Shown here: positions 1 to 38,949 of the stretch, piece after piece
How positions within the stretch are numbered: position 1 is the stretch's first letter
Layout: the number at the start of each line of letters is the position of its first letter
Source of the DNA: Mytilus trossulus
Taxonomy: Eukaryota
NCBI RefSeq assembly: GCF_036588685.1
Contig: NC_086379.1
Coordinates: 33,852,001-33,916,000 of the forward strand
DNA length: 64,000 bases
Reading direction: 5' to 3'
The notes under the pieces: generated by a model
What the model saw: only the letters and a program-made list of their open reading frames with translations
Database searches by the model: none
What the model was told of the DNA's origin: nothing
Translations under genes and position numbers: made by a program

Positions 1-72
1 TTTAATACACCATCAATTTTTGGATAGGATTTTGATGACTGTATGTATTGTGAGGAAGAAGGCTACTTGAAT

Positions 73-768
73 GAGGGGGGGACAAGGGGGTCCCCATAAC
101 AGCAAAACAGTGAATTAATTTGGTGGAAAACAGATAACAAGGAATTGAAAAGGGACAATAACAGATAACAGTAAATGAAATATGAAAATAAATGTCCAGA
201 ACAAATCCAGTAGAAGACTCGTAGATCTTAGTATATTATAACTTGTGGTATGGACCTGGAAATTTGTAATTTGTGTAAACAAGACATTTCGGCCGTTGAG
301 GCAGTTCTGTTTTGGTTGATTTTTATAACAGTACAGCATAAATACTGGAATGGTCCTGGTCCAAACGATTTTAAAAGTTTTTTTCTGATGAATGTTACTG
401 AAATTCTTCTGCAAATACAGGGCCACTCGATATTACAAGAAGAAAGACCCCAATAGATATACATTGTAAGAAGATGTGGTAAGCATGCCAATGAGACTGT
501 TATCCATTCAAATCACAATTTTCAATTATCTTCATTTTCTACGGAAGATAGGCTGTCAAAATGCTAACATTTCAATTTCCAATAACAGTTAACAGCAAAT
601 AGATTCTCACAATAACAGATAACAAAATAGATAAAACTCCTATAACAGCTAACAGAGAATAAGACAATAACAGCTAACAGCTAACAGTAAATTTATTTTC
701 AAAATAACGGATAACAAAGAATTAAAATGCCCCATAACAGCATAACAGTTAAACCCCTTGCCCCCCTC
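73..768. mobile_element. Non-autonomous TIR element (MITE) with ATAACAG-rich subterminal repeats; mirrored copy at 3456-4151
   Basis: Ends GAGGGGGGGACAAGGGG / CCCCTTGCCCCCCTC; TTGAAT direct repeat at 67-72 and 769-774 (6-bp TSD). Confidence 0.75.
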
Positions 769-1959
769 TTGAATGCCCTCGATGAAGGTGCTTATATGGA
801 AAATACATCTTTGTTGATTTCGTTGTATTGTTCTGTCTTACTTCGGTACTATAGAATTTGTACACGTGTTCAAATGCCCTTATAAAGATTTGTTCAGAGT
901 TAAATTTAAAATACTGGTAGATAATTTGTTATTTTTGTCTCTGATTCATGAGGGTCTTCAATTGTATATTGTTTAATTTTTTTAGCCCTTTATTCCGCAA
1001 TTTTTGTCAACACATCTCTATTCTGTAGACTGGACCATCGAGACCCTCATTTCTGTTCATTTTTATGTTCACCAAAACAGACTTAGGAAAGTATGTATAG
1101 TAGTTATTGCAGGTAAGGAAATGGGACGATGAAAATAACTTATGTCTGATTCATGTTATGTAATGCATATGGTGTACTTTTATTGGAATATTTATAATGT
1201 TACACGCAGCGGAGTTACGGGCCGGGGGTGTATACTATTTTGTACACTCCTCCTTCATCGCCAATATATATATATATATATATATATAGATGAAGATGTG
1301 ATGTGGTGTGAGTACCAATGAGACAACTCTCCATCCAAATAACAATGTCCGGTGTGTATTTTTTTTGTCCAGTGTTAGTTATTTTTTTTAACCATTTTCG
1401 TTCGTTCTTTGTTGCTATTACAATGTACTTTATAATTTATCTCTTTGTACCAGTCGTTCAAGTTTAAGTAAAAGTTGTGCGTTAAGGATCATTTACACAT
1501 GTAATAAAAATAATTGTATTATGGTGTATGACTATAATAGTTAAAATATTTGAGAAATATGTTTGTTAAAACAGCTATCACGGATTTATAAATATATATC
1601 GTTAGAAGTTACTGCTATTATGAATACTTCACATAGTTTTATAGTAATGTTTGATAAAACTTTTTAAATAATTCTTATTCCCTTTTTGTAACTTATTTTT
1701 AATATTAACTTGACGGGGAAAAGAAACAAAAACACAAAACACATATCACACAGAAAACCTGACCGTACCAGCTTTGTTTCGTATGTTATTTTTTACAAGG
1801 GAGATAAACGTTATAAGTGGGAAAATGGCAGGATCATAACAAAATAAAGGATTTCACACCTGTAAAATTGCTGGAATAGCATGACTTCTGTATGTTGGAC
1901 TCTCTATATCTTTTCTAACTAAATCAACAACTTCCAAGATCTTAATTCTTGGCATTCTG

Positions 1960-2110
1960 GCCACCGTTTCACAAAGGGTCGTAAATCGTGAAAAAGGTCG
2001 TACGACCATTTTAACGATATGCGACCGTTTCACAAATATTTACGATTTACGACCTACGAGGAATATTGGTCGCAAATTCCCGACTGGGTTTAAGCAGTCG
2101 TAAATCGGAA
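1960..2110. promoter_or_regulatory. Left TIR and subterminal repeats of the Harbinger (putative transposase/Myb binding sites)
   Basis: Repeated TCGTAAATCG / CGATTTACGA / CGTTTCACAAA at ~1966, 1979, 2026, 2043, 2098. Confidence 0.6.
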
Positions 2111-2153
2111 ACTTTAATAAAACGGGAAATAATACGTGTCATTTTTAGCAACT

Positions 2154-5100
2154 ATGGCTGCGTTCATGGCTTTGCTAGAACAAGAAGAGAGGAAAGAGAG
2201 GAGGCCGCGTATTTTCCGTGATCGACTATATGACAGATGTTGAGCTGATTGAGCGATACAGAATGCCAAGATTTAAGATCTTGGAAGTTGTTGATTTAGT
2301 TAGAAAAGATATAGAGAGTCCAACATACAGAAGTCATGCTATTCCAGCAATTTTACAGGTGTGAAATCCTTTATTTTGTTATGATCCTGCCATTTTCCCA
2401 CTTATAACGTTTATCTCCCTTGTAAAAAATAACATACGAAACAAAGCTGGTACGGTCAGGTTTTCTGTGTGATATGTGTTTTGTGTTTTTGTTTCTTTTC
2501 CCCGTCAAGTTAATATTAAAAATAAGTTACAAAAAGGGAATAAGAATTATTTAAAAAGTTTTATCAAACATTACTATAAAACTATGTGAAGTATTCATAA
2601 TAGCAGTAACTTCTAACGATATATATTTATAAATCCGTGATAGCTGTTTTAACAAACATATTTCTCAAATATTTTAACTATTATAGTCATACACCATAAT
2701 ACAATTATTTTTATTACATGTGTAAATGATCCTTAACGCACAACTTTTACTTAAACTTGAACGACTGGTACAAAGAGATAAATTATAAAGTACATTGTAA
2801 TAGCAACAAAGAACGAACGAAAATGGTTAAAAAAAATAACTAACACTGGACAAAAAAAATACACACCGGACTTTTATACATTGTTATTTGGATGGAGAGT
2901 TGTCTCATTGGTACTCACACCACATCACATCTTCATCTATATATATATATATATATATATTGGCGATGAAGGAGGAGTGTACAAAATAGTATACACCCCC
3001 GGCCCGTAACTCCGCTGCGTGTAACATTATAAATATTCCAATAAAAGTACACCATATGCATTACATAACATGAATCAGACATAAGTTATTTTCATCGTCC
3101 CATTTCCTTACCTGCAATAACTACTATACATACTTTCCTAAGTCTGTTTTGGTGAACATAAAAATGAACAGAAATGAGGGTCTCGATGGTCCAGTCTACA
3201 GAATAGAGATGTGTTGACAAAAATTGCGGAATAAAGGGCTAAAAAATTTAAACAATATACAATTGAAGACCCTCATGAATCAGAGACAAAAATAACAAAT
3301 TATCTACCAGTATTTTAAATTTAACTCTGAACAAATCTTTATAAGGGCATTTGAACACGTGTACAAATTCTATAGTACCGAAGTAAGACAGAACAATACA
3401 ACGAAATCAACAAAGATGTATTTTCCATATAAGCACCTTCATCGAGGGCATTCAAGAGGGGGGCAAGGGGTTTAACTGTTATGCTGTTATGGGGCATTTT
3501 AATTCTTTGTTATCCGTTATTTTGAAAATAAATTTACTGTTAGCTGTTAGCTGTTATTGTCTTATTCTCTGTTAGCTGTTATAGGAGTTTTATCTATTTT
3601 GTTATCTGTTATTGTGAGAATCTATTTGCTGTTAACTGTTATTGGAAATTGAAATGTTAGCATTTTGACAGCCTATCTTCCGTAGAAAATGAAGATAATT
3701 GAAAATTGTGATTTGAATGGATAACAGTCTCATTGGCATGCTTACCACATCTTCTTACAATGTATATCTATTGGGGTCTTTCTTCTTGTAATATCGAGTG
3801 GCCCTGTATTTGCAGAAGAATTTCAGTAACATTCATCAGAAAAAAACTTTTAAAATCGTTTGGACCAGGACCATTCCAGTATTTATGCTGTACTGTTATA
3901 AAAATCAACCAAAACAGAACTGCCTCAACGGCCGAAATGTCTTGTTTACACAAATTACAAATTTCCAGGTCCATACCACAAGTTATAATATACTAAGATC
4001 TACGAGTCTTCTACTGGATTTGTTCTGGACATTTATTTTCATATTTCATTTACTGTTATCTGTTATTGTCCCTGTTCAATTCCTTGTTATCTGTTTTCCA
4101 CCAAATTAATTCACTGTTTTGCTGTTATGGGGACCCCCTTGTCCCCCCCTCATTCAAGTAGCCTTCTTCCTCACAATACATACAGTCATCAAAATCATAT
4201 CCAAAAATTGATGGTGTATTAAAAGTATTATTCGTCCAGGATTTTTTTTATTAAATTAATAACAGCATGTATGCATGTGTCTATCTCAGAACTTATCCTT
4301 GCATTAACATCTAGTAAGTCATGAAGGAACTGTAATTGCTAACTATGACATCACATGGTCATGCATGTACAATAACATATATTAGTAGCCTTACATCCCA
4401 CAAGTACGTAAAATAATTACCCTACCACGTCCGATATGTGTCTCATTGTTCCTTATTTAAATTAACTTACCACCAGTTGGAATATTAGGCTGAAAGGCGT
4501 GTAAATTATAGTCCAGCGTGTACAAGCTGGTATGTCTAGCTGTCTTTTTTTAATTCTTATCATAAAGAGACGATCATTACTTCATGCTTTACTATATACA
4601 GTTATTCCCCGAAACTTATAGCTCCAAGTTTACGTTGCCAACGTGAGACAATCCTTTAAAGACAAAAGAGTACTCATTACAATCATACCATACACCCAAT
4701 ATAGTTGCCTATTGCTTACATCATAGGCGGATTCATGGGGCTAGGGGTCCATCTTTTTGTGGGAAATGTAGTGGATTATAACAGAAAACAGAAGTGCTTT
4801 ACTATACCAGTGGCGGATCTAGAACTTTTAATACGTGGGGGCCCTCTGACTATTCCAAAAGAGGGGGCGTTCCAGTCATGCTTCAGTGATTCCCTATATA
4901 ATCTGCAATCAAATTTTCCCCGGAAAGGGCCCCCTATATCCACCTATATAGACTAGTAAGGGACTTCTGATTATATATATATACAAAAGTAAAGGGAATT
5001 ACTGAAGCATATTTAAACATGAACCCAATCCCACTTTGGATCCGCCACCGTATACTAATTGACTCAGAGAAGTTGACATAACTACCAATTAAATTAATGA

Positions 5101-8100
5101 GGGTAAAGTCAAATAAACATCAACCGGCATGTACACATAGTTAAATTAATGCTTATAAATCAGACCTGGATGAGAACAATTAACCAATGGTCAGGACACT
5201 GTTGTCATATCAAGATGATTCCCTGGTCGGCCGCTTTAACAACTTACGTACGCCAAAAATACTTAAGCTTCCATATGAGTTTATTACTAGTAATCTGGTA
5301 CAGACTTAACCGTTAAACCTTTTAGGCCAGGTGAGCTAAAAAAGACCAAAACACAAAAACTTAACACTGAGCAATGAACCATGAAAATAAGGTCAAGGTC
5401 AAATAAAACTTGCGTCACTGAAATGTAGATCATAAAATATTTTCATACACCAAATTTGATTGACCTATTACATAAAAGATTACTAAGATCTACGAAAAAT
5501 GGTTAAACATTGACTATAAAGGGGCAATAACTCCTAAAGGGGTCAATTGCACATTTCGGTCATGTTGACTTATTTGTAAATCTTACTTTGCTGAACATTA
5601 TTGCAGTTTACAGTTTATCTCTACTTATAATAATATTCAAGATAATAGCCAAAAACAGTAAAATTTCCTTAAACTTACCAATTCAGGGGCAGCAACCCAA
5701 CAACAGGTTGTCTGATTCATCTGAAAATTTCAGGGCACATAGATCTTGACCTGATAAACAATTTTACCCTCTATCAAAAATGCTCTAAATGCTTTGGTTT
5801 TCGGGTTATAAGCAAAAAACTGCATTTTACCACTCTGTTCTATTTTTAGCCATGGCGGCCTTCTTGGTTGGTTGGTTGTCGGGGTCACCAGACACATTTT
5901 TTAAACTTGATACCTGAATGATGATTGTGGCCAAGTTTGGATTAATTTGGCCCAGTAGTTTTAGAGAAGATTTTTGTAAAAGTTAAAGACGACAGACGCC
6001 AAGTGATGGGAAAAGCTCACTTGGCCCTTTGGGCCAGGTGAGCTAATAATATCATACACAAAATATAGTTGACCTATGACATATAGTATTAGATAAAAAG
6101 ACTCAAAAACTTAACTTTGACCACTCAACCATGAAAATGAGGTCAAGGTCAGATGACATCTGCCGGCTACACATATACACCTTACCATCATTCCATACCT
6201 ATTGCCCAATATTGTGTATTTAGATATTTCTTGCTATTGCACAATACTGTGCAATTGAATATTTCATGCTTTTGCACAATACTGTGCAATTGAAGATTTA
6301 TTACCATTGCCCAATACTGTGCAATTGAAGATTTCTTGCTACTGCCAAATTCTTGTACTAATAATTTTGGTCCAACTTGAATACTGGGCCCAAAATCGAA
6401 AACCTAAGTACATGTTTAGATTCCTCATATCAAAGAACCCCAAGCAATCAATTTTTGTTAAAATCAAGCTTAGTTTAATTTTGGACCATTTGGACCTTAA
6501 TGTAGATCAATTTGAAAACCGGACCAAATAATTAAGAATCTGAATACACAGTTAAATTTGGCATATCAAAGAACCCCAATAATTCATTTTTGGATGAAAT
6601 CATACAAAGTTTAATTTTGGACACTTTTGGCCCCTAATTCGTTGGTATCAAAACTCCCAAAATCAATCCAAAACTTCTTTTTGTGGTCATAAACCTTGTG
6701 TTAAAATTTCATAGATTTCTATAAATTTATACTTAAGTTATTGTGCAAAAAACCAAGACAAATGCTTATTTGGGACCTGTTTTTGGCCCCTAATTCTTAA
6801 ACTGTTGTGACAAAAACTTCCAAAATCAATCTAATACTTAAGTAATTATCTAGAAATCATTCGTCTTCGGATGACGCTGATAACTTCAACGACCTGATAA
6901 CAATATACCACCAATTTTAGCATCCTTATAAAAACTGCAAAATGTACTTCAATTTAGTTATGCATGGACAGCAACCAAACAATATTGTCCGATTTGTCTA
7001 TAAATTAAAAACATGGCCGCCAATAGTCTAGCAACCTTGTCTTGCAGATAGCATTTCTTACTGTCAAAACAAATCTTATTAAAAATTTTGCAACTTGACT
7101 AAACATTATTGAAATGTGGACACAGAGATATGTTTTGCCTGGTAGTTATCTTAGATTCTCGATAGTAAAATGCAAATGTTCAACACAAATGGCAATGATT
7201 GCCTCGCTTGTCCTGTTCAAACTTTAACTTGATGTTTCCCCAGTATTCAACTTTTTCAACCCCTTTTTTTCAGGTATTGGTCTCTTTGAGATATTATGCA
7301 AAGGGGGATTTTTACTCTGAAGTCGGAGATTTGCATGGAATTTCAAAAGCCAGTGTGTCTAGATGCATCACAAGAGTATCTAAAGCCATCGTGTCAGAAA
7401 TGGACAACATAAAATTTCCATCAACAGAAGCTGAGATGAATGTGATTAAAAGGGGATTTTATCGTATTGCCAAGGTCCCAAATGTCATCGGTGCAGTAGA
7501 TGGTACTTTAATCCCCATTATTGCTCCAAAAGAGAATGAACCTGCATATGTCTGTAGGAAAGGATACCATTCCTTGAATATACAGGCAGTTGTGGATCAT
7601 GAGATGAGGTGAGTGAAAACAAAACTGGAAATATGATATGATATTTATTTGGAGATTACTAATTTGCTACTGTATATACTTACCTGTTATTCAGGAAACA
7701 AAAATAAACACAATAAAAATAACAAATAACAGTATTATAATTCACTGATGAAAAAAAGCAACAACATGAAAATAAGCATTGAAATTAAATTCATAAAATA
7801 GGGTAGGAAAGGCAACTTCTTCTTCTTCTTGGTATAAGCCTCCTTTAATTAGGAGCACCTTCAAATATATATGGAGTTTTCCCTTAACTTAAAAAAAAAT
7901 GTTTTTAAAATGATAAAACAAAAATTTTCCAACATATGTACAGCACATATAAATAAACAATTAACTATAGGAATGTCATGCATGGCATATTTACATGGAC
8001 CTTATTATTACAAAATATTCTACCATACAAGTATATTCACTTAAGTATGTGACTTAGTTTTATTTAAATTTAAAATAATGTTTCATTTAAATTTGCTTTT

Positions 8101-9224
8101 TAGTATGCATAAAATGTACATTAAAGGGAGGTTTTATTTAAAAGATCTATGTATTAAAATAATAATAGGTTAAGATGTAAGAATTCAATAAAATCTAAAA
8201 TAGCAGTTTTTCTTAGTGGAATGTTATATGTACTTTATGATCAATGTATAATAAAATCTTTTAAAAAGTTATAAAAACTTGTTTTGCCCCTATCAAAAGA
8301 TTTTAAAAGGTTATATTAATGATAAGCACTGTATAATAAATTGTATAAGGCTGTTGGGGATAGGAGTGATTTTTAAATATTTAAGATTCTTACAATTATT
8401 TAATAATTTAGCTTTATGCATGTACACATTTTATTTTATTTCAGATTTACAAACCTAGTAGCAAAATTTCCAGGCAGTGTACATGACTCGTACATCTTTT
8501 CAAACTCTGAATTGGGATACTTTTTTGAAGAGAACAATGTGGATGGATGGTTACTGGGAGATTCTGGATATGGTCTAAAAAAGTATTTGCTTACTCCAAA
8601 ATTAAATCCTAACACACTGGCTGAGGAGAAATACAATAAGGCTCACTCAAAAACACGCACCATAGTGGAACAGGCATTTGGTGTATGCAAATCTAGATAT
8701 AGGTAAACAAAAATATTATTTTCAAATTTCAAAAAATATCATTTTAAATATATGTTAACGAACAGTCATTCTTATGCCCTCTATAACTTGCTGTTCCATG
8801 TGCACCAAGACTCCTTATTGAAGAAGTTGTATTGTTACCTATAATTCTGCTAAATTCAGTCTTGGGTGCAGAGTATGTCTCATTGACTCTCGTACTACAT
8901 CTTATTAATAAAATATGAAGAATGAAACAATTTTCTTTTTCTTAAGTGCAAATTACAACAATTTCCAATGTAAAAAAAATATTGCTTTTTTTTTATCATT
9001 ACAGGTGTTTGCATAAAACAGGGGGCTGTTTGCCATTTACACCTGACAAATCTGCAATAGTTGTTACAGCTGTTTTTAAACTCCACAATAAGTGTATAGA
9101 TGACAAGTTGCCACTTCCAGATTTTACAGATGATTTTATTGACAATGTAGATAACCATATTAGAGATATTGCACCTGCTACTGTTCAAACTCTTAGAGAA
9201 CACATTATTCAGAGATTTGCCTAA
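2154..9224 (+). CDS. Harbinger (HARBI1-like, DDE_Tnp_4-type) transposase; exons 2154-2358, 7274-7608, 8445-8702, 9005-9224; frameshift at ~2223
   Basis: Spliced translation ...ELIERYRMPR...RSHAIPAILQ|VLVSLRYYAKG...VIGAVDGTLI...RKGYHSLNIQAVVD...FPGSVHDS...LLGDSGY...YNKAHSKTRTIVEQAFG...RYR|CL...LHN. All introns GT-AG and in phase; D-D-E residues present. The ATG2154 frame stops at 2241-2243; ATG2230 gives an open 313-aa spliced ORF. Confidence 0.93.
3456..4151. mobile_element. Mirror copy of the 73-768 MITE, in intron 1 of the Harbinger transposase
   Basis: GAGGGGGGCAAGGGG ... CCCCTTGTCCCCCCCTC flanked by ATTCAA on both sides. Confidence 0.75.
5325..6930 (-). mobile_element. Cluster of Helentron-associated (HINE-like) non-autonomous elements, with ~34-bp tandem repeats at ~6200-6345
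   Basis: Minus strand TTATTAGCTCACCTGGCCCAAAGGGCCAAGTGAGC hairpin start followed by a GTC microsatellite (~6048-5985). A second GGCCAGGTGAGCTAA end lies at ~5326; TTGCACAATACTGTGCAATTGAA repeats follow. Boundaries approximate. Confidence 0.5.
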
Positions 9225-10099
9225 AAATTTATTTATATGCCTATATGATTCATGAAAATTAGAAAAACATGTTTCTGTTTTCCACCAAAAATATATTTAT
9301 ATCAATTTTCAATTTATATAACAGAAATCTCAATTTTTACTATTATGTATAATTGCATGTACTCAGTAATTCACAATTAAGAAATATGAATGAGAATATG
9401 GCTGTAGGGTATTATATAAAATTATCTTTAAAGGGGCACTAGCTACTAGATATATAAAAAATCTGAAGTATGTTTTTTTTTGTTCAATCATTAATGAAAG
9501 TGAAATAGTGAAATAATAATTTGCTTTTATCAGCTGGAATGGTTCAGTTTTTTCAAATAAAGCTAATAATCATTGAATTATTCATTTGCCAGTGAAAAAC
9601 TCAACCTATTTAAATCCGTATTTATGTGAACTCCAAATTAACCCTGTAGAAAGATATAGAATATGCATGCGCTGCCTGTGTATTGTTATTTAAAGGAAAA
9701 GAATGTCAACCTTGAAAATGAAACAAAGGTAAATAATTTGATTGATTAATTCAATCCACAAAAACTCTTTCTGATAACAGTAAAAACCATGATAAACATA
9801 AATTTATAATTTATAAAACAAAATTTACCAGACCTATAAAGTTCTAATTGCAAGGGCAGTTTATTCTATTTATATTTAACAGACCTATAAAATTTGAATT
9901 GCATGGGTAGTTTAATCTATTTATATCTATGTTTATGTATACATCGCTTATATGGTCATAGAAGGTCAACTCAATAGTTAATTAGATGGTGTCTTGGCTA
10001 AAATTCTGGTATCTGTGGAAAAACTGCTTTAATTTACTAAAGTTTAAATTTAAGTTTTGTTATTTGAAAAAAATTTTTTTTAGCTTTCATATTTTTGGT

Positions 10100-13000
10100 T
10101 TAATTTTCATTTATCATTTTAATAATTGGAGACAACATCACATCAGATAAGTCGTTTGAAAATTTCATTTTCTTCAACTTTACATAATCTTCAAATAGCT
10201 CCAGGCCCCTTTTCTTCATTGCAATGCCTTGTTTTAACAGTTCTAGTTTTTCTTCCCTTTGTCTTCTATAAACCTCTTGGTTTTCCTGTTTTAGGGCAAA
10301 TTTCTTTTTTTCCAATTCCAGTTTTTCTTTTTTAACTTTCAGCTTTTCTTTTTCAACTTCTAATAACAATTCTGTAAAGAAACATTGTTTAAATACTTAC
10401 ATAACAAAAGGACACGTCCAACACTATTTATATATAGGTATCTCTTACATTAAAATTGTACAAGAACTTGGTGGAAATAAATTCATCATGTAGATCTTTT
10501 TGCTCTTTACACTAGTGATAAATGAATTAACTTAAAGTGATACTGGTTAATTTTCTGTATGATTACTAAAATATAGTCTTTAAATTAGTTCAATTGATAT
10601 CTTGAGTTGGCCATGGTTTTAGTATAAATTGGTATTATATTGATAATTGTCAATTTGCTTAGTTTCCTCTTCTACTTTCTTTTAATATCACACTCGGATT
10701 TCCTTTGAACTGATTTGGAGTGAGTTCAAAGCTGTAATATTTTATTTAATGCAGACTCAAGATACAGAGAGTAGTTTAAATATCACTAAAAAAAAATATA
10801 ACTGAAAAGTATCTATGCACCCATTTCAAGTCCGGAAAACATGGACTTAATTTTGCCTTTTATGTTTACAAATTTTATTTCATATGGATGTTTTAGATTC
10901 AGTGTGGCATCCATTTCTTGTATTACTATGCACAACATTTCACAATAATTTAATTTAACTTTTCTTCTGATTGGCTGAGCCTTTTTTGTTTATCAGCTCA
11001 TAGACATAACTTTATCATGTGGTTATGATGGTTATCATTGTTTTTTCATGATTTACTTGAGTTTAAATTGGAGTTAAGAATTAAATTATAAGAAATGAAT
11101 GTATAAATACTTTTTTGGTCTATCCTGAATAACATAAAAAATGTGGCACACACTTTAAAATAAATTGCTTGCAGGTTATACTGTGTCCACCTCATATTAC
11201 AGTAATTCCTTGATTATTGTTCTAATTTACAAACCTGATGAAGACGGAACAGGATAATTTTTGGTTTCTTTCCTGACTGGAGATAGTATTAATCTCTTTT
11301 CAGTGTCATTTTTTTCTGTAAATTATATTATAATTAGGTACAATTAACATTATGAGTAGGCATAATACACAAAATATTATTCATCATTAACACTTGAAAA
11401 AACAAATATCAAATAATTATCTTAAAACATGCTTATCATGATTAAAAAGTGTGGAAAACTGATTATCTGCATAAATTGACATGTTCAAATATATTTATGC
11501 GCTGTACCTGAATTAAATTCTGCGTAATAAAAGTTAAAATTAGAAGAAATAATAAATATTGTTTAGATTAAGCTTTAGCTTTGTTGACATGGGACTTATC
11601 AAAAGTAACATACCTCTTGTTGGCAATGCTGCAGACAAGTTAGCCTCAGCTGTTTCAGGATTTTCTGAAACAAAATTATATCATAATTTTAAAAAACTTA
11701 ATGAAAATATAAAATGTTATGATTTTATTCCAATTATTACATTTTTAACCAGATTTTTGTTACAAAATGTCAGTTATTGATTTGGGGATGTACTGTGGTC
11801 GGGCGGCCGGGCAGGCGGCAATCAAATGTTGTCAGTGCATTAACTCATGAACCGTTCAACCAAAACTTTTAAAATTTTAATATGTTGTTACTAACAACTA
11901 AATGAAGGTCAAGTTCAATAATGGTGATTTTGGTCTCTTTGAAAGTAACACTAAAGTGTGATGGTCCATTTGTAATGTTTAAGTTTATTTAATTTTTTAA
12001 GCTAACATGCAATGGTTTGTTAATAGAACCTGGTGATGAAGGTGTTGGCATTTTAGCCTTGGCATTAATTAAGATGTTTTTATTCAGCCTCACCATACCC
12101 CCCCCCCAAAAAAAAAATGAAATAAAATATTTTTTGGTTTAACTGTGGTTCAGTTCAGTGTAGAGATATACATACATTTTTAAGACATGTTAAAAGCACC
12201 ATATAAGCAGAATGATATATTTGTTCTTCAATAATTGCACTTACTTAGGACACTTGGTTCACCTTCCTCATGAAACTGTATGAAGTTCTTTGGCTTTGCT
12301 GAAATGTTAAGTTTCAAAGTAGAATACTATAGCGACAAGAACACTATTCATACTATTACAACTGTAAATAAACTGATTTGGAGTAATAAAAAAAATATTC
12401 TACAATACAAGTTAATTCAATACAGAAGGTCAATATCCTTAGGGACAACATTTATAAATCAACGAATGAAAAAAAAATTAATTGGTCAGAGTACACAGTT
12501 ATCGTTCTTTGATTTTCTTTGTCCACGTATATAGTCCTTAGTGTGGACAGTGAATTACTGGCTAAATTTTGTTATACCCCTCCCAAATTTATTTCTCCCT
12601 GTTTTATGCCTCATTTAGCAATTCGGGGGGGGGGGGGGGGGGGGGGGGGGTGAAATGACACTGTAAAAAATTTGGGTTATAAATATTAATGTAAAGTAGT
12701 GATTATGTCCAGCTGAAAAAGGTACAAAAAATAGCACTTCGGAAGCTGTCAAAAGCTTTCAAGACCCCCGTAACTTAAAATTTCCATATTTCGAGTTAAA
12801 AATGAAGTTTTCTCTAATTTTGATATAATTTGTCCCAAAAGTAGTACAACACACTTTAAAAATATTATTGAGAAATCACAGGGGGGATTTTTTTTTCATT
12901 TTCATTTATTGTCTAAAAGTAGTTCACTCAAAATAACTGTGTAGTCTGTACTCGGATCAATTCAAATAGTCTGCAAGTTTTTCGTTTCATTGACATCTTT

Positions 13001-16000
13001 TTTAAATGTATGTTTATTGGTGAATCCATGTATCCTAAATTAAGGTAAGGAAATCATTTTGGACCATTACCATTAGTACCAATCAGAATCTTTACTCATA
13101 ATGTAGCTCTAGCTTTTTATTTCGGTATCCACCAGAATCCACCTTTTGCACAAATGTTGGTCTTTTTCCAACAATTGTGACTTAAACAACAACTAGATGG
13201 GTCAAAGCGACATAAATGGCCCCCGTCTCAAAATGTTGAAAAATCATCAATTTCAATAACACATGTGGTTGATGTGGACACAAACATGATGGTAGTCTCA
13301 CATGTCGAAAATCAGCTCAAAATCTAGTGGTGTATAGAAAATAGTCTGTACAAGAGTGATTTTCAACAATTTTCAAAGTTGATATCCCTTAATTTTGTCA
13401 AAAATTAGCTGAGAAAACCAAAGTCCAAAGCCCAAAATAACAGCAGAAATAGTCAAGTGAAACAAAATTTAACTTGATCTGTAAGTTATCATGGGTAACT
13501 CACATACCAAAAATTTGCCCAATATCTAAAAGCGTTTTGAAAAAGAGTCTGTATAACTGTGCTTTTCAACAATTTATCAAAGTCAAAACCATGTAATTTC
13601 GGTAAAAATTAGCGAAGCAGAACTAAAATTAAACTTGATCTGTAACTCATTATGGTTAACTCACATACCAAAATTTAGCCCATTGTCAGCAGGCGTTTAA
13701 AATTTCTGAATTACAGAATTTCTGTCAAGGATAAAACTATATGGCAGAGCCATAAAATTTGACTGATACGCCGGATAGGTGAAACAATTTACCTTGTTGC
13801 ATGAAATATAATAATATTCTTAAAACAAGAATAATTGTATAGTTAGTAAATAATCTTCCTACCTAGAGAATCATAGCCTGATTCCAACCCTGAAATGGCA
13901 GCGTCTGATGTTACACTTATAATCTGAAAAGAAATAAGAAATATACTGTATAATTGTGTTTTTTTCCTGTAAAAGTACTGTGTGAAACATTCATTGGGTT
14001 TCAGAACCAGAGGTTAGTGGCTTAGCTTGACTATTTTTAAGTGTACACCCCAACCTTTGCGAGAGGTTCGATATCCCTGATCGACCCAGGTTATAACACT
14101 TTCTAGTAGTGGATTTGAGGGGGAGGTGTCATTAACAACTGATCAATAGCAAATCAAAATACCCAATAGGCTATTTTTTCATCTTTTATGTTTAATGCAT
14201 TCATGGTGTTGATTTGAAATCTAATGGTCAAATTTCAAATGGTCAATCATTTCAATGGTGTAACAGAAAATATCCAAACCAGTTACTTTAAAACATTTTT
14301 TCAAATGGAACCGTGGGGTATAGCAATTACTCGAGTAAACCCTCTTTTTGTGCAAATGTAGTTAATGAATATGAATTTATTAACTGTCATAGATGTTATG
14401 GTGCATTATGTTAATTCGTAAAGGGTTCCATGGAACCGTAGTTCTTGCTATATTACCTCTTCCCAAGAAAAGTGAATCTTTTTATCAGTCCATCACAGGA
14501 TTTTAAATAATCAAACAGTTTCTTTATAATTTATTTTCCTTTATTTGGAATATTTTACTACTACCTAAGTCTCATGACAATATCTGAAGGTTTTAAAAAT
14601 TATCATGTAGACAATAATAATAGGGTACCATTTGATTGAAATCAAATATTGTGCCTTTTATTTGCAATTACAAGCTATTGAAGAGAGATTTAATGGCTGG
14701 TGTGCTTTAAACCAGATTTTATTAATTCATTGAGATTGAAATAATTTTTTTACCAAAATTCAAGTGTAGGCCTATGCGTTTTGATGTAAACGTAGCTACG
14801 CGCCTGGAGGTGCATACATGTAAGCTTATTTGTGTAGCCCTAACACATCATACATATTCCTGTCCTTAGTCAAAAAAAAGTCTTTAAAATTTGTGTTGTA
14901 TATTATTCCACAATTTATCCATATGATACAGTAAAGGTTTAATGGCTTAAGGAATTTGCACCATAAAAAATATGAAAGTCTTAAAAACTAAGGAAAAATT
15001 GATTAATCACCTTTAATTCGTTAGAGTCAATCTCTGGAGGGGCTGGCCCACCTCCAGTCATCAAACTGTCTCTCCTCCTTTTGTTCTCCTTCTTTCTGGC
15101 ATCACTTTGCAAATCAAGCCATTTTTTCTTTACTTGCGTGATACTTCTAGGTTGTATGTTGCAGGAATTGATACTGAAAAAAAATGTGTAATGTTTAAAA
15201 ACATACATGTAATTCTTATTTTTATTGATTATCGTTGATCATCTCCAGAAGATTGATTATGTCTCTTTAGCCAATACAGCAAAAGCAAAAAAAAGCAATC
15301 AAGAAGAGATGACCATTTGAAAGTCTGTTATCATGTTAATCGCTATTTGACAATAAAAAATTGTCAATTAAAGGCCACATGCCCCTAAGTTTCTAATGAT
15401 AATTTTTCTTACCTCTTTACCCCGATGAGAAAGGGATTTATTAATCAACAAGATCAAAGGAAAATAAAAGCAATAATAAAGAGATAACTGTATTGTATTT
15501 GAAGCTTTAAGGACGTCCATCGGTAGTTTTACTGTCAGTTTGCCTGGCGACGCGATATAAGTGTTGTGTGGTCACAAGTTGAATATTTTTCAATATTTGA
15601 ATTCTTTGATTAGTTTTTCTTTTTATTACATTGGCAAATGGCTTTTTTTAAAGAAATTTGTGTAAAAAATGTTAGAAACTATATCTTTTTTTCTATGCAT
15701 TTACTATTTGTTTTGTTCTGCCGTTATCAACGTCTTGACAATGCCTATCGTTGTATGATGTCAGAGAGTGAAATACTGTAAATTCAGAAATTATTGCGAG
15801 GTTTTTATTATTGCGAATAATGCGTCTGAGTTGTAAACGCAATAATTAAAACTCGCATTTTGTAATATTTTAACTGAATTAAGCAGGACTTTTCTCAAAA
15901 TCGTAAAAATTAAAATCGCATTCAAGTGTAAATTGACAGAATCGCAATAATAAATGCACGCAATAATTTCTGAATTTACAGTAACCATGTTTATTTCACA

Positions 16001-19000
16001 TGTGAAATTATCGGATTTTATCTTATGTAAATAATTGCAACCTATGTAATAAAAAGATATAAATTAGCAAGATGAACTTCAACCTGCTAACAATGGCTTT
16101 AGAATTATTTTTTTTTCTTATTTTGGAGTATGAAATTCAGAAACAATAAATAATTTCTTCCTATCAAATTCTTACTAATTTTATAAAATTTATATTATCA
16201 TGATTATTAAGTGTTCTAAAACTGATGATCTAGATATAATAATGATATTGACTGTTTTTACAGTAAATGTACTCCAACTGTTTTCACTTTGAGTTGTAAA
16301 TATTCTTATAAATCATTCTTGATATTTAGGAACATGTTTATATATCTAATTGTATGGATGATTGTACTGCCTTATTTATATCAACATGATGTCAGCAATA
16401 AAACTTTGTCAGTTTTTATCCTGTATGTTTTATGTTATTTATTTTTAAAGTTGGCTGTATAGTCATGATAGTAGATGTGAATGTGCTAGATAAAATTCAT
16501 GTTAGTCTTATTAAATTAAAGTAATTATTATTATATAATGTTCAAAATAAAATAAAATAAAATTGAAACCTGAGAAATAAACCAGTACAATGTACAAGTG
16601 AATACATTGTATGTTACAACAGTGGCTAGTAAAGAATTTCCCTTTGGAAATGTTATGTTTTACACATAATAATGATAATTATATCGGTTGGACAAGTTAA
16701 ACATATATACTTTTTCTTATCATTTCAAAAGTAATCTTTAAAATGAAAATATTGAAGAGGTTGGGAACAAACCCTCTATATGGTGGTAATACATGGAATA
16801 GAAGGATAATCTATTTTTGTTTAATCTGGATTTAAATCAAAATAGGCCAGGGCAGACTGTCACTGGCATTCTCTACTTATTATGGCAGTGACCTGAAACA
16901 GTTGATGCACCAATTGATGTTCTTAATTTAATATGTACATGCCCAGTTTGATGCTTACCCGACTAAATATAAAATCTATTGTTTACCATGATTGAAAGCA
17001 ATGATGATCAGGTTTATTCTACTCACTTATGCCTCACTGAACAGAATTTCTATTGATAGATTTTACATGAAATTTAAAGGTCAACTATTCAATTTGTTGT
17101 TGATCAGGTGTTCAGATAGGGCATGTCAGTTAACTGCTATAGTAGTCTGTTGTAATATATATAATCAAGTGTCATTTTGTTTATTTTCTTTTGTTACATC
17201 TTCTGACATCAGATTCGGACTTCTCTTGAACATGTTGAATTGAATTTTAAATGTACATATTGTTATGCGTTACTTTTCTTCATTGGCTACAGGTGGCACG
17301 GTAGTATTTCCTGGCCCATAGGGGATAATGATAGCCTTTTTAGAATTTTCACCACTTTCTAACACTGCAAAAAATTCTACATTCACAGTTTACTGAAGTA
17401 CTTTCATTTTACTATTCAGAAATGAATTTGAATATGTATCATGACCGTTTACTTTTTTTGCTATTTTTAAAAACCTAAGGCCACTAGTACTTTTAGGTCT
17501 TTTATGGTGCAGTGAATACAAAATTTAAAAAAAATCTCAAAAATTCATTTTCATCTGTATGTAAAATTATTTCATATTTTTCTACACCTGATTCATCCCT
17601 CAGTTTGGGAAAGTATGTTCAGTTGATACTGTACTTTTTGTCCAATCACACTGTTTAGATACATTTACCTAAGTAGGGTACACAAAAGAGCAACCTAAAT
17701 TCTGGAAAGCAAATACTACCGTGCCACCTTAACCAAGACATAACAAACTTGCAACCAGTCATGACACCTATGATGCATAGACTTCTTATTTTGGAACATA
17801 TTACAATAAAGAATACTAGTCTGCACTCATTTCTTACCCAAAAAAAATGAAACATTACATCCCTACCCCATCTGGCAGATTTTCACTTTTTTTTTCATCT
17901 TACCATTTTTACTTAAGGAGTGAACAAAACCCAAATATATGATGTTTCAAATCAACACAGAAGTCAAACATGGTGATTCAGGAGGAATTAGTGGATTGCC
18001 AACTCTGTTTATGGTTAATCTGACTGAAAGAAACAGTTTTAGCACCAAATCATAAAAACTGGTATTAAAGTCCATTCCACATTTTACAGCATGCCTTATA
18101 TTACTTTAAACATTTCCAGATTATGAGGATAATACAACAAGAGTCTTTAGATTGCAGTTAACTATTATTCCAAAATCTGTTTGGCAATACATGTACTAGA
18201 ACACATCTCTTAGTTGACTGTTTGTCTATTTCTCATGTATGCATTAAGTTAAATTATGTCCCCTTACATAATCAATTTGCCTTTATTGTGCTTTTCACTG
18301 TCAGAAAATCTTAAAAGTTAATGGTATTTGCATGGAAAATGAATAAACCATTTAATCTTGCTGATATAACATCATAAAAACATTCTTTGTCAAAAATAAT
18401 GTCTTGTCAATGTAAAGACACCCCTATTTCTATCACTATTTCAGACCAATATGAGAGCTAAATCAATAAGTAAGGACCCCTTAACCACTTACTGGTTCCC
18501 CAAAAGCTGCTACTGGTGTCATGTTACATCAGAACTACAAATTAAACCTGAATAAAACTAGTATAGCTGTACTTCTGTTGAAAAAAATAAGAAATTATGC
18601 AATTTATTCATTTCGGTGAAAATAATAGGACCTACATGCAACCTAAGAATGTCGCGTCTCAAATTTCAGTGGTTGCACATGTGTTAGACACTGCGAAAAG
18701 TTAAAGCGAGCATTTATAATTGAAAGTGTATTGCATGTTACATAAAAATAATGAATTTCAACTTTCTAGGTAAATATCTACATTATCACCCACAGGTCAG
18801 GCAAAATTTGCTGAATCAGCAATTTTTACTCTCAGGGGTGGAATTTAAGGCTTGTTTTTATCATAGTTGCCCTTAATCAACTTTTTATTGATAAACTTAC
18901 AAATTGCATAGGTAAAAAAGAATCCTTTAATGATTTAGTGTAAAAATATATATCCCCCTTAAGGTGGCACGGTAGTATTTCCTGGCCCATAGGGGATAAT

Positions 19001-19601
19001 GATAGCCTTTTTAGAATTTTCACCACTTTCTAACACTGCAAAAAATTCTACATTCACAGTTTACTGAAGTACTTTCATTTTACTATTCAGAAATGAATTT
19101 GAATATGTATCATGACCGTTTACTTTTTTTGCTATTTTTAAAAACCTAAGGCCACTAGTACTTTTAGGTCTTTTATGGTGCAGTGAATACAAAATTTAAA
19201 AAAAATCTCAAAAATTCATTTTCATCTGTATGTAAAATTATTTCATATTTTTCTACACCTGATTCATCCCTCAGTTTGGGAAAGTATGTTCAGTTGATAC
19301 TGTACTTTTTGTCCAATCACACTGTTTAGATACATTTACCTAAGTAGGGTACACAAAAGAGCAACCTAAATTCTGGAAAGCAAATACTACCGTGCCACCT
19401 ACAGATATAGGGGAGGGTTGAGTTGAAGATTGTTTACCTTTCTGTAATGGAGTCCCAACATTTAGTTTTGTCGGAACTGGATAGGCCAGGAGAAAATTTC
19501 CCCTTAATTATGTCTATACTCCCGGTAACAAGAGTTACAAGGGTTGAAACCTCTTCTTTTGACCACCGGATGGCCTTCCCTGTGCTAACAATAGAGTCCA
19601 T
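10100..19601 (-). CDS. Harbinger Myb/SANT-like DNA-binding protein, ~281 aa; exons 19601-19438, 15173-15011, 13923-13863, 12298-12245, 11664-11614, 11315-11235, 10371-10100
   Basis: MDSIVSTGKAIRWSKEEVSTLV...KTKCWDSITES|INSCNIQPRSITQVKKKWLDLQSDARKK...MTGGGPAPP...|IISVTSDAAISGLESGYDS: trihelix Trp pattern plus TGGG motif, then a C-terminal Lys/Glu coiled coil. GT-AG junctions are in phase, total 846 nt. Small middle exons are less certain. Confidence 0.87.
15774..15983. mobile_element. TA-flanked MITE (TACTGTAAATTCAGAAATTATTGCG family)
   Basis: 25-bp inverted ends TACTGTAAATTCAGAAATTATTGCG / CGCAATAATTTCTGAATTTACAGTA; second copy at 27632-27813. Confidence 0.85.
17292..19399. mobile_element. 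Composite-like KolobokP-type non-autonomous DNA transposon: LTDR1 17292-17728, internal region, LTDR2 18963-19399
   Basis: Two apparently identical 437-bp direct repeats, each bounded by an 18-bp TIR GGTGGCACGGTAGTATTT/AAATACTACCGTGCCACC. TTAA at both inner junctions (17729-32, 18959-62); TACA TSD at 17288-91 and 19400-03. Confidence 0.88.
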
Positions 19602-19894
19602 CTTCAAGTTATGATGTCGTCTGCTTGGGAACCTTTCATGAAGCACATTTCGCGGATTTTGTTTTTAACTATAAATGTTTATATTACAATTCGATACTCA
19701 ACATACTTACCTGAAACCGTTCCATTCTTATATAACCTGCTTGTCTTACTTGAAAGAACTGTATACATAAACCAGAAATATATCATATGACATATGATTG
19801 TCGATAAAGAGCTCCGATAAATGATATTATTAATTCAACACAGGTGCGCGTCTGATCAATTTACCGACCTTCACACAAAAGAGCTGTATAAACC

Positions 19895-20024
19895 GTGGTC
19901 GGTAATCGGAAGTCGTACGATAATTTTTCCGACACGTTTGTGAAACACTCGTTAACTTGGTCGGGAACATATTCTACGACCAGTCGTAAATCGTACGATT
20001 TACGATGTTTTGTGAAACGATGGC
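19895..20024. promoter_or_regulatory. Right subterminal repeats and TIR of the Harbinger
   Basis: GTCGTACGA, TTTGTGAAAC and GTCGTAAATCGTACGATTTACGA motifs leading into the TIR. Confidence 0.6.
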
Positions 20025-20789
20025 CTGGGGAATATTGTCCCGAGTAAATTTTTATATTGCACGAGCTTGCGAGTGTAATTTATGTTCTACGATGGACAAT
20101 ATTCCCGAATATTTATGCATAACCCTTTTATTGTATAGCAATATAATATTTGGAAGTAAATCTTGGTTTAAACTAAGATTTTGTCGTTGATGACGTCATG
20201 AATCTTAAAGATGTATTGCACTAGGGTAATATTGGAATTTATTGCACGCTAGCTTTTGGCTACTTTCTATGTTAAAGGTTATATTGCTTTGCAACAAGAT
20301 TTATTAATTCATGTATTTCTTTTGTAGACGAAACGCACGTCTGGCGTGAATACTTTTATGTTAAAAGAAACTCTTGCAACAAATTTTTCTTATGGTACGA
20401 ACGTAACTGCCGATATATTGAATCAATGTTGAATACATTTGTATCATAGCTTTCTCTACCTGTTTAACCATGTATATTTGCTCTGTGGTTTTTGTCTGAA
20501 GGCTTTATTATTACAGTATTTAAAAAACAGTGACAGAAGATGTTACATAATAACTTTCAAAAGAATGACCAAACTAGACAGGAAGGAAGTTAATCAACAC
20601 TGCTATGACGTATCACTCTTACCGCAACAATATTGGGAGGAAATACAAGTAATATATGTACATTTACGATCATTCTTGTATTTAAAAGGGTTGGAACTCT
20701 AGTATACCTAGAGCGTCACAAATTATACATTTATTATCATCTGTATAAATGTGTTACAATCAATAATTTGGTACTCGAGTAATAGTTTC

Positions 20790-37099: not shown

Positions 37100-38345
37100 A
37101 GCCCTGACATTTATTCTGACTATGACCTAACAATAATAATGATTATAACGCTAATCTTTATCATGACTACAACCATAACCCCGATGCTAGCTACCCGAAC
37201 ATTAATGTTTGTTTACTATACCCCCAAATTTATCCTAAATATAACCCAAACGTAATTTTACTATAACCCTTATCATAAATGTGACAATAACCATAACTCT
37301 AATGATGTTTATAACCTTAACCCTAATGCTGACATGGCCCTAACCCTATCCTTGTCCTGATTATAACCTTTACCTAAAAAGTGACACTTAGCATAATCAT
37401 AAAGGTGAATATAATCCTTGTCATCTTACTGACTATAACCCTTACCATAATGCTGGTTGTAAGTCTTACCTTAATGCTTGTCATGACATTTTCCTTTATG
37501 CTGACATTTACCCTAACCCGATCGCTAACTACTAGTATAACCCTAACCCTAGTGCTTGACAATAACAGTTATTCTGACTTTTCTTCACTTACCGTAATGC
37601 TGACTAAACCCTATCCCTTATGTAGATTTAAACCCTCAGCCCCTATGTTGGCTATAACTCTCACCGTATTGGTGACTATAAACCTAACCCTTTTATGAAA
37701 CCTTAACCCTAACCATAATGCTGGCTATAACCCTAAATATTATTGTGAAAATAACTGTAACCCGATTGCTGGATATAATCTTAACCTCAGTTCTGACAAA
37801 AATCTTAACAATAATGTTGATTATAACGCTAACCCTAGTGCTGACCACATCCCTTAATATAACGCTGGCTATAATTCAAACCTTAATATTGACCCTAACC
37901 CTAAACGGAATGAAAACTATGATCTGTCCATATTCAACAGGCTGACTAATAACCCTTACTCTGACCATCATAGTGACTAGTACCCTAGCTATAATGCTGA
38001 TTATAACGCTATCCCAAATGCTGACCTATAACATAACCCTGGTTACGGATCATAACCCTAATATCGACTCAAAACGTAAACGTAAATGTGGCTATAACCC
38101 AGATCCTATTTCTGGTATCATTACTAACCTTTACGATAGACATAATACTAACCCTTATGATAACCATACTGCTAGCCCTATCAATGCCTATATCTCTTAC
38201 CCTAATAATGATAAAAACCTTCACCCTTATGATGACTATAATATAAACCCAAAAGCTGAATATAACCCTTACTCAAATGATGACTACATGTGTAGCCCTT
38301 ACCGTTTTGCTGGCTATAACCCTAACCTTAATAGTGACCAAATAG
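37100..38345. repeat. Degenerate telomere-like (TAACCC)-based minisatellite
   Basis: Recurrent ATAACCCTAACCCTAATGCTGACT-like 18-24-bp units; the ORFs here are low-complexity artefacts. Confidence 0.75.
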
Positions 38346-38949
38346 TGACCAAAAAAACTCACCTTATTAGAGGTCGGTCATTTAAAGACACATCAACCGT
38401 AATATATACGTTGACGTATCCGAATCTGTAGATAAAAAAAAAAAGTATATGATCCCGAGCTTTAATTTCATGTACTTTAAATAATTCAAATGGGCGACTG
38501 ATTAATTTCTAATGCAGAAATTTACAAAACAATAAGAAAATATCGAGTTTTTGTGAATATGTATCCCTACTTTTAAAGATATTCCGGATAGTTGGAACAG
38601 TTTACAGGTATGATAGGAGTGAATACGGTAATTCGTTTGTTTGTGTATGAACTTGTGCTCACGAAGAACCAAATTGACAATTCCGCGCTTCACACAAAAT
38701 GTACTTCGGTCAACGCTTTTACACCCCAATGAAGTTACAAAAAGAAGCATTCAATTCTTAAAAAAAATATAAAAATGATCGGACATTTTTTATTAACCTG
38801 AATCTAGAATGTTCAAGAATGATAAAAGCAAGATGCGTTGAGAAATCCTTCAAGTAAAAACTGTTAAAGATGACAAATGTGTACCTTGAAAAGGCTGATG
38901 TGATTATATGTTACAGTGTATAAAACATGTATTTGTCTTGCTGTGGATG

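Follow-up and report, generated by a model that had tools for sequence, protein, structure and literature searches.

The left end of an 18-kb Harbinger-type transposon of the mussel Mytilus trossulus is fused to an inverted copy of its own transposase gene, and the palindrome formed in this way was likely produced by one hybrid-end transposition between sister copies of the element, leaving what is probably an inert scar and not a silencer (we put the chance of this reading at roughly 60 %). Read in this manner, the locus would be a natural, young example of an animal Harbinger-type element transposing aberrantly, a process of which Ac/Ds and P furnish documented cases and rice mPing a suggested one. 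No animal Harbinger case was found in the literature, as far as this can be judged from listings, which do not prove absence. Such events would offer one route to structural variation in mussels, and the reading makes an exact prediction for the far junction.

The element and its genes

Within the window, i.e., the whole stretch of 64,000 nucleotides that was analysed, the complete element occupies positions 1960-20024 (18 kb), with 16-bp TIRs and the triplet CTG on both sides (Table 1). The initial annotation had overlooked the remainder of the element as far as 20024, the CWG target present at the junction, and the 14-bp frameshifting deletion in exon 1. The transposase ATG at 2154 agrees with the N-termini of the proteins P0020 and P0045. 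The DDE domain (PF13359) was recognized in exon 3 (E 5.9e-16) and in the protein P0002 (E 2.7e-31), and most of the 43 homologues are named HARBI1. A Myb/SANT domain (PF13873, E 2.2e-08) is present in the second gene, ORF2, the splicing of which was seen in contig 13 of the public RNA-like run X19, where a gap of 247 nt corresponds to the four middle exons. A search for a second gene identical to ORF2 gave one 189-aa sequence common to two accessions, both with a contig of the same length, by which one gene and two are indistinguishable.

On the basis of its DDE_Tnp_4 domain, its Myb/SANT open reading frame, and its CWG target duplication, the element would belong to the Harbinger-like PHIS transposons of the NuwaI-group type. 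In the portion of the source drawn on here, members of this group have TIRs of 12-61 bp that usually start with GGG, and they share with the mussel element the CWG target duplication, the DDE transposase and Myb/SANT reading frame, a short TIR, and an animal host (PMC4482050). The mussel TIR of 16 bp falls in this range but starts with GCC, and its 18 kb with multi-intron genes stand against an average consensus of about 4.5 kb.

Table 1 Features of the element, the palindrome, and the flanks (positions in the window)
Feature	Position	Strand	Remark
Left arm, inverted copy of the element from CAG at 2259 onward (exon 1 end and intron 1)	1..1959	-	extends beyond window start
Inverted copy of the last 100 nt of transposase exon 1	1860..1959	-	reads MPRIK..., allele common to other copies
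CTG adjoining the left TIR; CWG target triplet	1957..1959	+	reverse complement of CAG 2259-2261
Unpaired 299-nt spacer: left TIR, subterminal GGTCGTAAATCG-like motifs, presumed promoter, exon 1 start	1960..2258	+	
Left TIR, 16 bp	1960..1975	+	
Transposase exon 1, coding part	2154..2358	+	14-bp deletion behind 2220, giving a frameshift and a stop at 2241
Right arm, as far as its mirror image lies in the window: CAG target, then 100 nt of exon 1 and intron 1, which contains nested repeats	2259..4223	+	
Transposase exon 2, DDE_Tnp_4 start	7274..7608	+	
Transposase exon 3, DDE_Tnp_4	8445..8702	+	E 5.9e-16
Transposase exon 4 with stop	9005..9224	+	
ORF2, Myb/SANT-like partner gene, 7 exons	10100..19601	-	open 281-aa frame
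ORF2 exons	19601-19438, 15173-15011, 13923-13863, 12298-12245, 11664-11614, 11315-11235, 10371-10100	-	
Right TIR, 16 bp	20009..20024	-	1 mismatch to left TIR
CTG, target-site copy of the original insertion	20025..20027	+	
Right flank, 3' part of a dispersed repeat split by the element	20028..20260	+	uninterrupted homologue L001

Structure and reach of the palindrome

A palindrome with a stem of some 2 kb, which would include 100 nt of transposase exon 1, had been reported in the initial annotation, and global alignment showed it to be real: arm 1-1959 and the reverse complement of 2259-4223 are distinguished by four substitutions (27/4197, 150/4074, 977/3247, and 1946/2272) and two indels, one of them 8 nt long and the other a difference of 2 nt in (TA)n. 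The arms are 0.2 % apart, and their blastn identity is 99.3 % over 1967 columns. Derived changes are present on both sides, at 2272 and 4074 on the right arm and as the 8-bp deletion on the left arm. As the left arm touches the first base of the window, a stem of about 2 kb is a minimum. In the part of the stem that holds exon sequence, all but one of the 100 positions of 1860-1959 pair with 2259-2358; the exon thus makes up 100 of the 1965 nt of the visible stem (5 %), the remainder being intron 1, partly in the form of high-copy unrelated repeats. RNA crossing the center would fold, as had been claimed, with a predicted value of -255 kcal/mol for 1860-2358, and the inverted duplication of a Harbinger-type element is likewise borne out. 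The loop, 1960-2258, is single copy within the window; its length of 299 nt, the left TIR, and the transposase start codon are as first described, while the promoter that had also been placed there is presumed.

The protein P0002, a M. trossulus record, bears on the reach of the left arm. It starts with the left-arm allele, which it matches at 33/33, against 32/33 for the right arm. Like the window copy, and unlike P0001 and P0045 with their Val, it has Ile90, and it differs at 1 of 216 residues from P0044, which is identical to the window. The length given for its longest contig is also that of P0044, P0047, and P0052. These observations suggest that the left arm runs through exon 4, over at least 7 kb, although P0002 could be a third copy located elsewhere. 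The frame of the left arm has another ATG 18 codons upstream, so that the start of P0002 is not forced by the junction.

The junction and the apparent native insertion site

The junction falls exactly at base 1 of the left TIR, which is joined to CTG just as the right end adjoins CTG. The triplet fused to the left TIR is the CAG/CTG of the element's own exon 1; CWG occurs at 440 of the 18065 positions of the element (2.4 %). Flanks of other copies were surveyed in 4 of 18 DNA runs, in contigs that show presence only. Among the matches listed at 1956-1963 in these four runs, CTG or CAG directly precedes the TIR in eight of nine, and in the ninth the first bases of the TIR are altered, with CAG ahead of them. 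Two matches at 1977, from X3 and X4, have a degenerate end that is preceded by GAG, not CWG. Normal continuity of exon 1 (joint 1959/2258) was present in all four DNA runs. All 24 public runs matching 1-9300 consist of assembled contigs, and none of them is listed as RNA. None of the pieces listed in the four DNA runs bridges 1959|1960 (contigs cannot show absence), and the junction is therefore without read-level support in these runs.

The element split a dispersed repeat, of which the uninterrupted homologue L001 carries a single triplet at the place homologous to the insertion. In a comparison made by eye, 16 of 21 positions of one left flank from X1 agreed with the L001 sequence that precedes the right-flank repeat, a match for which the probability by chance is about 6e-6, or 6e-5 when ten rows are allowed for; the left arm in the window matched the same stretch of L001 at 8 of 21. 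The X1 flank thus appears to be the native left flank of the element. As it fits L001 and the left arm does not, the right end appears to lie in its native site and the left end to have moved. No second copy of the right-flank repeat was found within the window. The pattern built on the right flank had no match in viral contigs and otherwise hit eight loci, of which L001 is homologous and the other seven were dropped as chance matches; a gapped pattern of putative native left flank and right flank had no match in metagenome contigs.

Origin of the palindrome

A TIR-exact junction with a CWG triplet, CWG at the other copies, and an apparent native left flank in one of the runs make aberrant transposition, of the hybrid-end, sister-chromatid kind, the most likely origin. 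After replication, the transposase, made by this copy or, if the frameshift came first, supplied in trans, would bring together two ends from different chromatids, the left one from the first and the right one from its sister. The CAG at element position 300 on this sister would then receive the paired ends. The predicted product reads, from the left, native left flank, left TIR, a stub of ~300 bp, CAG, and an inverted right TIR, continued by the inverted rest of the element (~17.8 kb), CTG, the complete element, CTG, and the native right flank. The window would hold the last part of this structure, and the far junction is expected ~15.8 kb to the left of its start. The reported lack of preference of the rice Harbinger Ping for local transposition counts against such a local model, as far as the consulted part of the source goes (PMC7584900).

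Hybrid element insertion by the Drosophila P element, defined in PMC2775673 with reference to Gray et al. (1996), and SCT of maize Ac/Ds (bioRxiv 10.1101/2020.01.07.897926) are, in the available portions of these accounts, alike in two respects: an element end is set precisely on a new target with the signature of the family, and an inverted duplication is bordered by element ends. The mussel case differs from both in that a CWG-targeting animal Harbinger element is involved, the target is its own exon 1, and one ordinary element would suffice; the comparison relies on the near junction, the far one lying outside the window. For rice, the part of PMC7584900 considered here describes structural variants in which a PIF/Harbinger transposase is likewise implicated and breakpoints lie at element termini. 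Linked MITEs take part in those variants, most of which are deletions or macrotransposons, and the short reads used there could not show inversions.

Fold-back repair is an unlikely rival. A resected break just outside the left TIR, whether made by the transposase or not, would allow a 3' end that closes with the CAG of the former target site to fold onto the CTG 299 nt inside and prime copying, and the palindrome would be a repair scar instead of a strand-transfer product. Spacers left by fold-back events are typically a few hundred bases long, and the native left flank ends in CTG, by which 3 bp of microhomology would be available and an identical junction formed. Such a course demands that the break fall at a distance of precisely 3 nt from the TIR and that no more than 3 bp serve for priming, and the partner triplet is exactly the target motif of the family. 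Moreover, a fold-back that is not followed by a second template switch leaves an unstable chromosome.

There is very little to be said for a double element, in which a whole sister copy was inserted, inverted, into the donor exon 1 in the manner of double Ds and the donor's 5' stub on the right was lost later. The left junction would come out the same, and the complete copy would have CTG on either side. The right end, however, adjoins the native target repeat with no trace of an inverted 299-nt stub, and a second, precise event would be needed. It is equally hard to credit that the palindrome is an artefact of assembly, caused by a long read that was chimeric or folded back. Assemblies are known to contain false palindromes that are long and perfect, and the lack of a bridging contig among the pieces listed in the four DNA runs would fit. 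Against this, the four substitutions and the 8-bp deletion that separate the arms include derived states on either side, the first TIR base and the target motif of the family are just where the joint lies, and the public record has the left-arm allele together with exons 2-4, although this record may share the same assembly. A simple nested insertion should have left an inverted 5' stub behind the right end; as there is none, this reading was rejected.

Proposed silencing capacity

The initial annotation proposed that the palindrome acts as a silencer resembling maize Mu killer. Such a function would be compatible with any origin of the palindrome: read-through across its center, from the inward-facing ORF2 promoters, a promoter in the far-left stub, or an unseen host intron, would yield a hairpin RNA that enters piRNA or ADAR pathways and lowers the family in trans. 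The arms pair almost perfectly, the intact ORF2 is spliced in X19, and Mytilus has piRNAs (PMC11067994). The unspliced contigs 8237-8868 (X19) and 8405-9420 (X22), which are strandless, may represent read-through from the 3' end of ORF2 toward the center. Bin 1960-2469 has no contig cover in X19 and X22, two of the six RNA-like runs, which says nothing on expression of the loop.

The arrangement of the locus nevertheless renders silencing improbable. Both the start codon and the one left TIR lie in the loop, outside the stem, and point outward, so that the presumed transposase promoter would copy one arm only. The predicted ORF2 promoters are the only internal promoters facing the center; ORF2 retains a 3' end of its own that lies 7.8 kb from the loop, and a hairpin RNA would therefore need long read-through. 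The distance from the ORF2 stop to the loop is 7842 nt, over which 13 AATAAA and 10 ATTAAA hexamers occur on that strand in AT-rich DNA, and an RNA of at least 10.3 kb is needed to pair any exon beyond the first 100 nt. No host gene overlapping the palindrome was found in the window; the nearest one found ends at 42800, 22.8 kb beyond the element. Molluscs are reported to be without DICER2, the siRNA Argonaute, and endo-siRNAs (PMC11114477, PMC12479628), and the mussel is without a reported siRNA pathway to turn a hairpin into a trans-silencing signal. With the outward-facing 5' end in the loop, exon in 5 % of the stem, no overlapping host gene found, and the siRNA loss of molluscs, the Mu killer-like function is not supported, and we infer from the layout of the locus that it has little or no function. 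A more elaborate version is very improbable: a whole-element palindrome of ~36 kb with two intact, inward ORF2 promoters would give a multi-kb hairpin over the transposase gene, handled by piRNA or ADAR pathways, that damps the family in trans and would amount to a self-made killer in animals without siRNAs.

The maize killers, as described in the portions of the sources used, illustrate the differences. The Ac killers p1-ww-id1 and id4 are also inverted transposon duplications, probably formed by the element's own aberrant transposition, and killers produced by alternative transposition silence in trans (bioRxiv 10.1101/2020.01.07.897926). They consist of two 5' Ac fragments with the promoter kept inside the repeat and are located in host introns, whereas the mussel 5' end is an unpaired loop. 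For them, dsRNA, siRNAs, and heritable silencing were shown; the mussel locus is known from DNA sequence, with no overlapping host gene found in the window. Mu killer is, like the mussel palindrome, a natural inverted duplication with 5' transposase-gene sequence; it is read through from a flanking gene and has two TIRA and two truncated mudrA copies (PMC3440606, PMC1563492), both TIRA copies being kept and the two partial mudrA copies ending in the inverted duplication (PMC3440606). In contrast, the mussel locus has one left TIR in a central position, keeps the 3' ends of both genes, and occurs in a phylum reported to be without endo-siRNAs; the two copies of the 5' end, TIR and promoter, that lie inside the inverted repeat of the Mu and Ac killers are not found in it.

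Silencing, if shown, would matter much more, since molluscs are reported to be without the siRNA pathway used by the plant killers, and the locus would then test how bivalves handle long endogenous dsRNA. The CpG o/e is 1.77 in the loop, 1.76 at the right end, and 0.59 in the arm, a pattern that is uninformative on silencing, as the high values reflect the subterminal motifs.

Structure of the palindrome and of its element

At the start of the window a mussel Harbinger-type element is duplicated in inverted orientation (see table); the duplication is real and young, and probably transposase-made. In the alignment, the left arm is the reverse complement of the right arm apart from four substitutions, a microsatellite that differs by 2 nt and a single 8-nt indel, with a substitution distance of 0.20% (95% interval 0.06-0.52%). 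Base 1 already lies inside the palindrome, and the visible length of the left arm is a minimum.

Features of the window
Feature	Position	Strand	Remarks
Left arm	1-1959
Spacer (loop)	1960-2258		299 nt
Right arm	2259-4223
Harbinger-type element	1960-20024		18 kb
TIR and inverted partner	1960-1975, 20009-20024
Transposase gene	ATG 2154, exons to 9224	+	four exons, DDE_Tnp_4
Myb/SANT gene (ORF2)	19601-10100	-	seven exons, PF13873, open 281-aa frame
437-bp TIR elements	17292-17728, 18963-19399		in ORF2 intron 1
1.8-kb element	29370-31202		80-bp inverted ends
440-bp tandem array	31191-34437		7-8 copies
Degenerate array	37100-38350		24-bp period
Host gene	57862-42800	-	EGF repeats

The TIR search gave four matches at three or fewer mismatches (0.45 expected), the two element termini among them, and CTG adjoins the element at both. 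The best homologues of exon 2 are Mytilus records (99-100%). In M. trossulus itself, the transposase record P0044 (C-terminal 216 aa) matches the window and the ORF2 record P0052 shows 0/281 differences from it, while P0047 matches the neighbouring host gene.

By target, ORFs and host the element fits the NuwaI group of PHIS elements, for which a CWG target, DDE and Myb ORFs and animal hosts are described (PMC4482050); the TIR, unlike the usual NuwaI end in that source, does not start with GGG. The element is about four times as long as the average NuwaI consensus (PMC4482050), enlarged by repeats nested in transposase and ORF2 introns alike; ORF2 is nonetheless intact and spliced.

Judged from its sequence, the transposase of the window copy is broken, its frame meeting a stop at 2241. 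Fourteen additional bases behind 2220 were seen in three of the four public DNA contig runs (X1, depth 141/141; X2, 21.8/40.5; X3, 16/16), X4 having no such row, and the matching residues are present in the protein records P0020 and P0045. Short derivatives whose match to the left end stops after its first 90-155 bp (loose ends behind 2052-2115) occur in all four runs and are probably non-autonomous family members.

Target site and origin of the palindrome

CWG is the target of this family. CTG or CAG immediately precedes the TIR in eight of the nine loose-end rows listed at 1956-1963 in the four DNA runs, the ninth having CAG followed by a slightly altered TIR; in another two listed rows, at 1977, the end is degenerate and preceded by GAG. 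Within the element, CWG takes up 2.4% of positions. The left arm ends precisely at base 1 of the TIR, and its terminal three bases, read on the opposite strand, repeat the CAG that stands at 2259-2261 in exon 1 of the element itself.

On its right the element is flanked by the downstream portion of a dispersed repeat with an uninterrupted homologue, L001 (one of eight pattern matches). In a comparison by eye with the upstream part of L001, one left flank in X1 was identical at 16 of 21 positions (chance ~6e-5 after correction for ten rows), whereas the window's own left neighbour agreed at 8/21. The element thus appears to have been inside an L001-type repeat originally, with a CTG duplication; its right end would still be there, and its left end has moved and now lies in exon 1 of an inverted copy. 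Several other insertions of the family (loose ends 1957-1963; X1, X3 and X4) are at the CAG/CTG within a mussel repeat that is common and similar to 6015-6045, which suggests that this repeat is a preferred target.

The simplest single event to give the palindrome is hybrid element insertion, in which the ends of two sister copies act together in one transposition (PMC2775673); sister-chromatid transposition is described in maize (bioRxiv 10.1101/2020.01.07.897926). Ends from two sister copies would cooperate, with element position 300 of the sister as target. The product would run from the native left flank through a left-end stub, CAG, the inverted right end and the inverted remainder to CTG, the whole element, CTG and the native right flank, the window holding the last part and the far junction being expected near -15,800. 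The main rival is fold-back repair primed on the 3-bp match, which would yield an identical junction.

Hybrid element insertion is indirectly supported by the protein record P0002, which begins at the first ATG within the arm and carries the left-arm allele (33/33 vs 32/33). It shares Ile90 with the window copy and differs from P0044 at 1/216 residues, and the longest contig recorded for it, 85,406,108, equals in length that for P0044, P0047 and P0052. If P0002 is the left copy, the arm would be at least 7 kb long; P0002 may also be a third copy elsewhere. Normal exon-1 continuity (joint 1959/2258) was found in all four DNA runs and no piece across 1959|1960 was among those listed, so that these four runs give no view of the rearranged allele. 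An assembly artefact is unlikely, because each arm carries derived changes of its own: 2272 (Ile to Phe) and 4074 in the right arm and an 8-bp loss in the left.

Aberrant transposition is established for Ac/Ds and P, and the palindrome is probably a further case of this known rearrangement type. In rice, the Harbinger MITE mPing has likewise been implicated in aberrant transposition, and local hops of Ping are described as not favoured (PMC7584900). Judged by titles and abstract openings, no Harbinger or animal equivalent was found among the papers that the searches listed.

Potential as a silencer

The initial annotation proposed a Mu killer-like hairpin silencer at 1860-2358. The pairing holds: 1860-1959 and 2259-2358 match at 99/100 bases, and 1860-2358 folds at -255 kcal/mol. 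The likeness to Mu killer extends to the inverted duplication and fails in the layout. Mu killer is described as keeping TIRA and a truncated mudrA in two copies each, transcribed by read-through from a flanking gene (PMC3440606, PMC1563492), and Ac killers as inverted 5' fragments that still contain the Ac promoter, lie in host introns and produce dsRNA and siRNAs (bioRxiv 10.1101/2020.01.07.897926). In the mussel locus the layout is reversed for the transposase gene, with the TIR, presumed promoter and ATG in the loop, facing outward. The transposase promoter would therefore copy one arm, and divergent firing from the loop would, by this anatomy, yield a pair of same-sense RNAs. Exon accounts for only 100 of 1965 bases of the visible stem. 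Depth in X1 is 52-243 over 1400-1860, and in bins over 2470-4509 it reaches thousands to hundreds of thousands; a large part of the stem is therefore unrelated repeat of high copy number. A silencer function of the palindrome is very improbable.

A hairpin RNA would arise most readily by way of ORF2, which is oriented toward the centre. Contig 13 of the RNA-like run X19 joins 15011-15179 to 10207-10371 without mismatch via 247 nt, the combined length of the four middle exons, showing that ORF2 is expressed somewhere in the family. Unspliced contigs at 8237-8868 (X19) and 8405-9420 (X22, also RNA-like) cover transposase exons 3-4 and the adjoining intron, and minus-strand AATAAA stands at 8138 and 8064. 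These strandless contigs are possibly a 3' extension of ORF2; in ordinary copies, the ORF2 3' UTR and the transposase gene may overlap in antisense. From the ORF2 stop to the loop are 7842 nt, and only an RNA 10.3 kb long or longer could pair any exon past the first 100 nt. The palindrome might also lie within an intron of some larger gene that has exons beyond the window; the sole host gene found in the window ends 22.8 kb past the element. Its product is a small protein with EGF repeats and hydrophobic ends (P0047, 242 aa; named '24 kDa ookinete surface protein-like').

In molluscs, DICER2 and the siRNA Argonautes are reported lost and a 32-species survey reports no endo-siRNAs (PMC11114477, PMC12479628), which leaves the plant mechanism without an obvious counterpart in the mussel. 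piRNAs are reported present (PMC11067994), and editing or piRNA capture of a hairpin RNA is possible.

Other features of the window

The two 437-bp elements are identical, in direct orientation and 1234 bp apart. Their flanks are exchanged (TACA-E-TTAA ... TTAA-E-TACA), and the pair resembles either a cointegrate or the product of a second aberrant transposition. Further on, the 1.8-kb element is followed by the 440-bp tandem array, and the degenerate array shows a strong C skew and TAACCC-like words.
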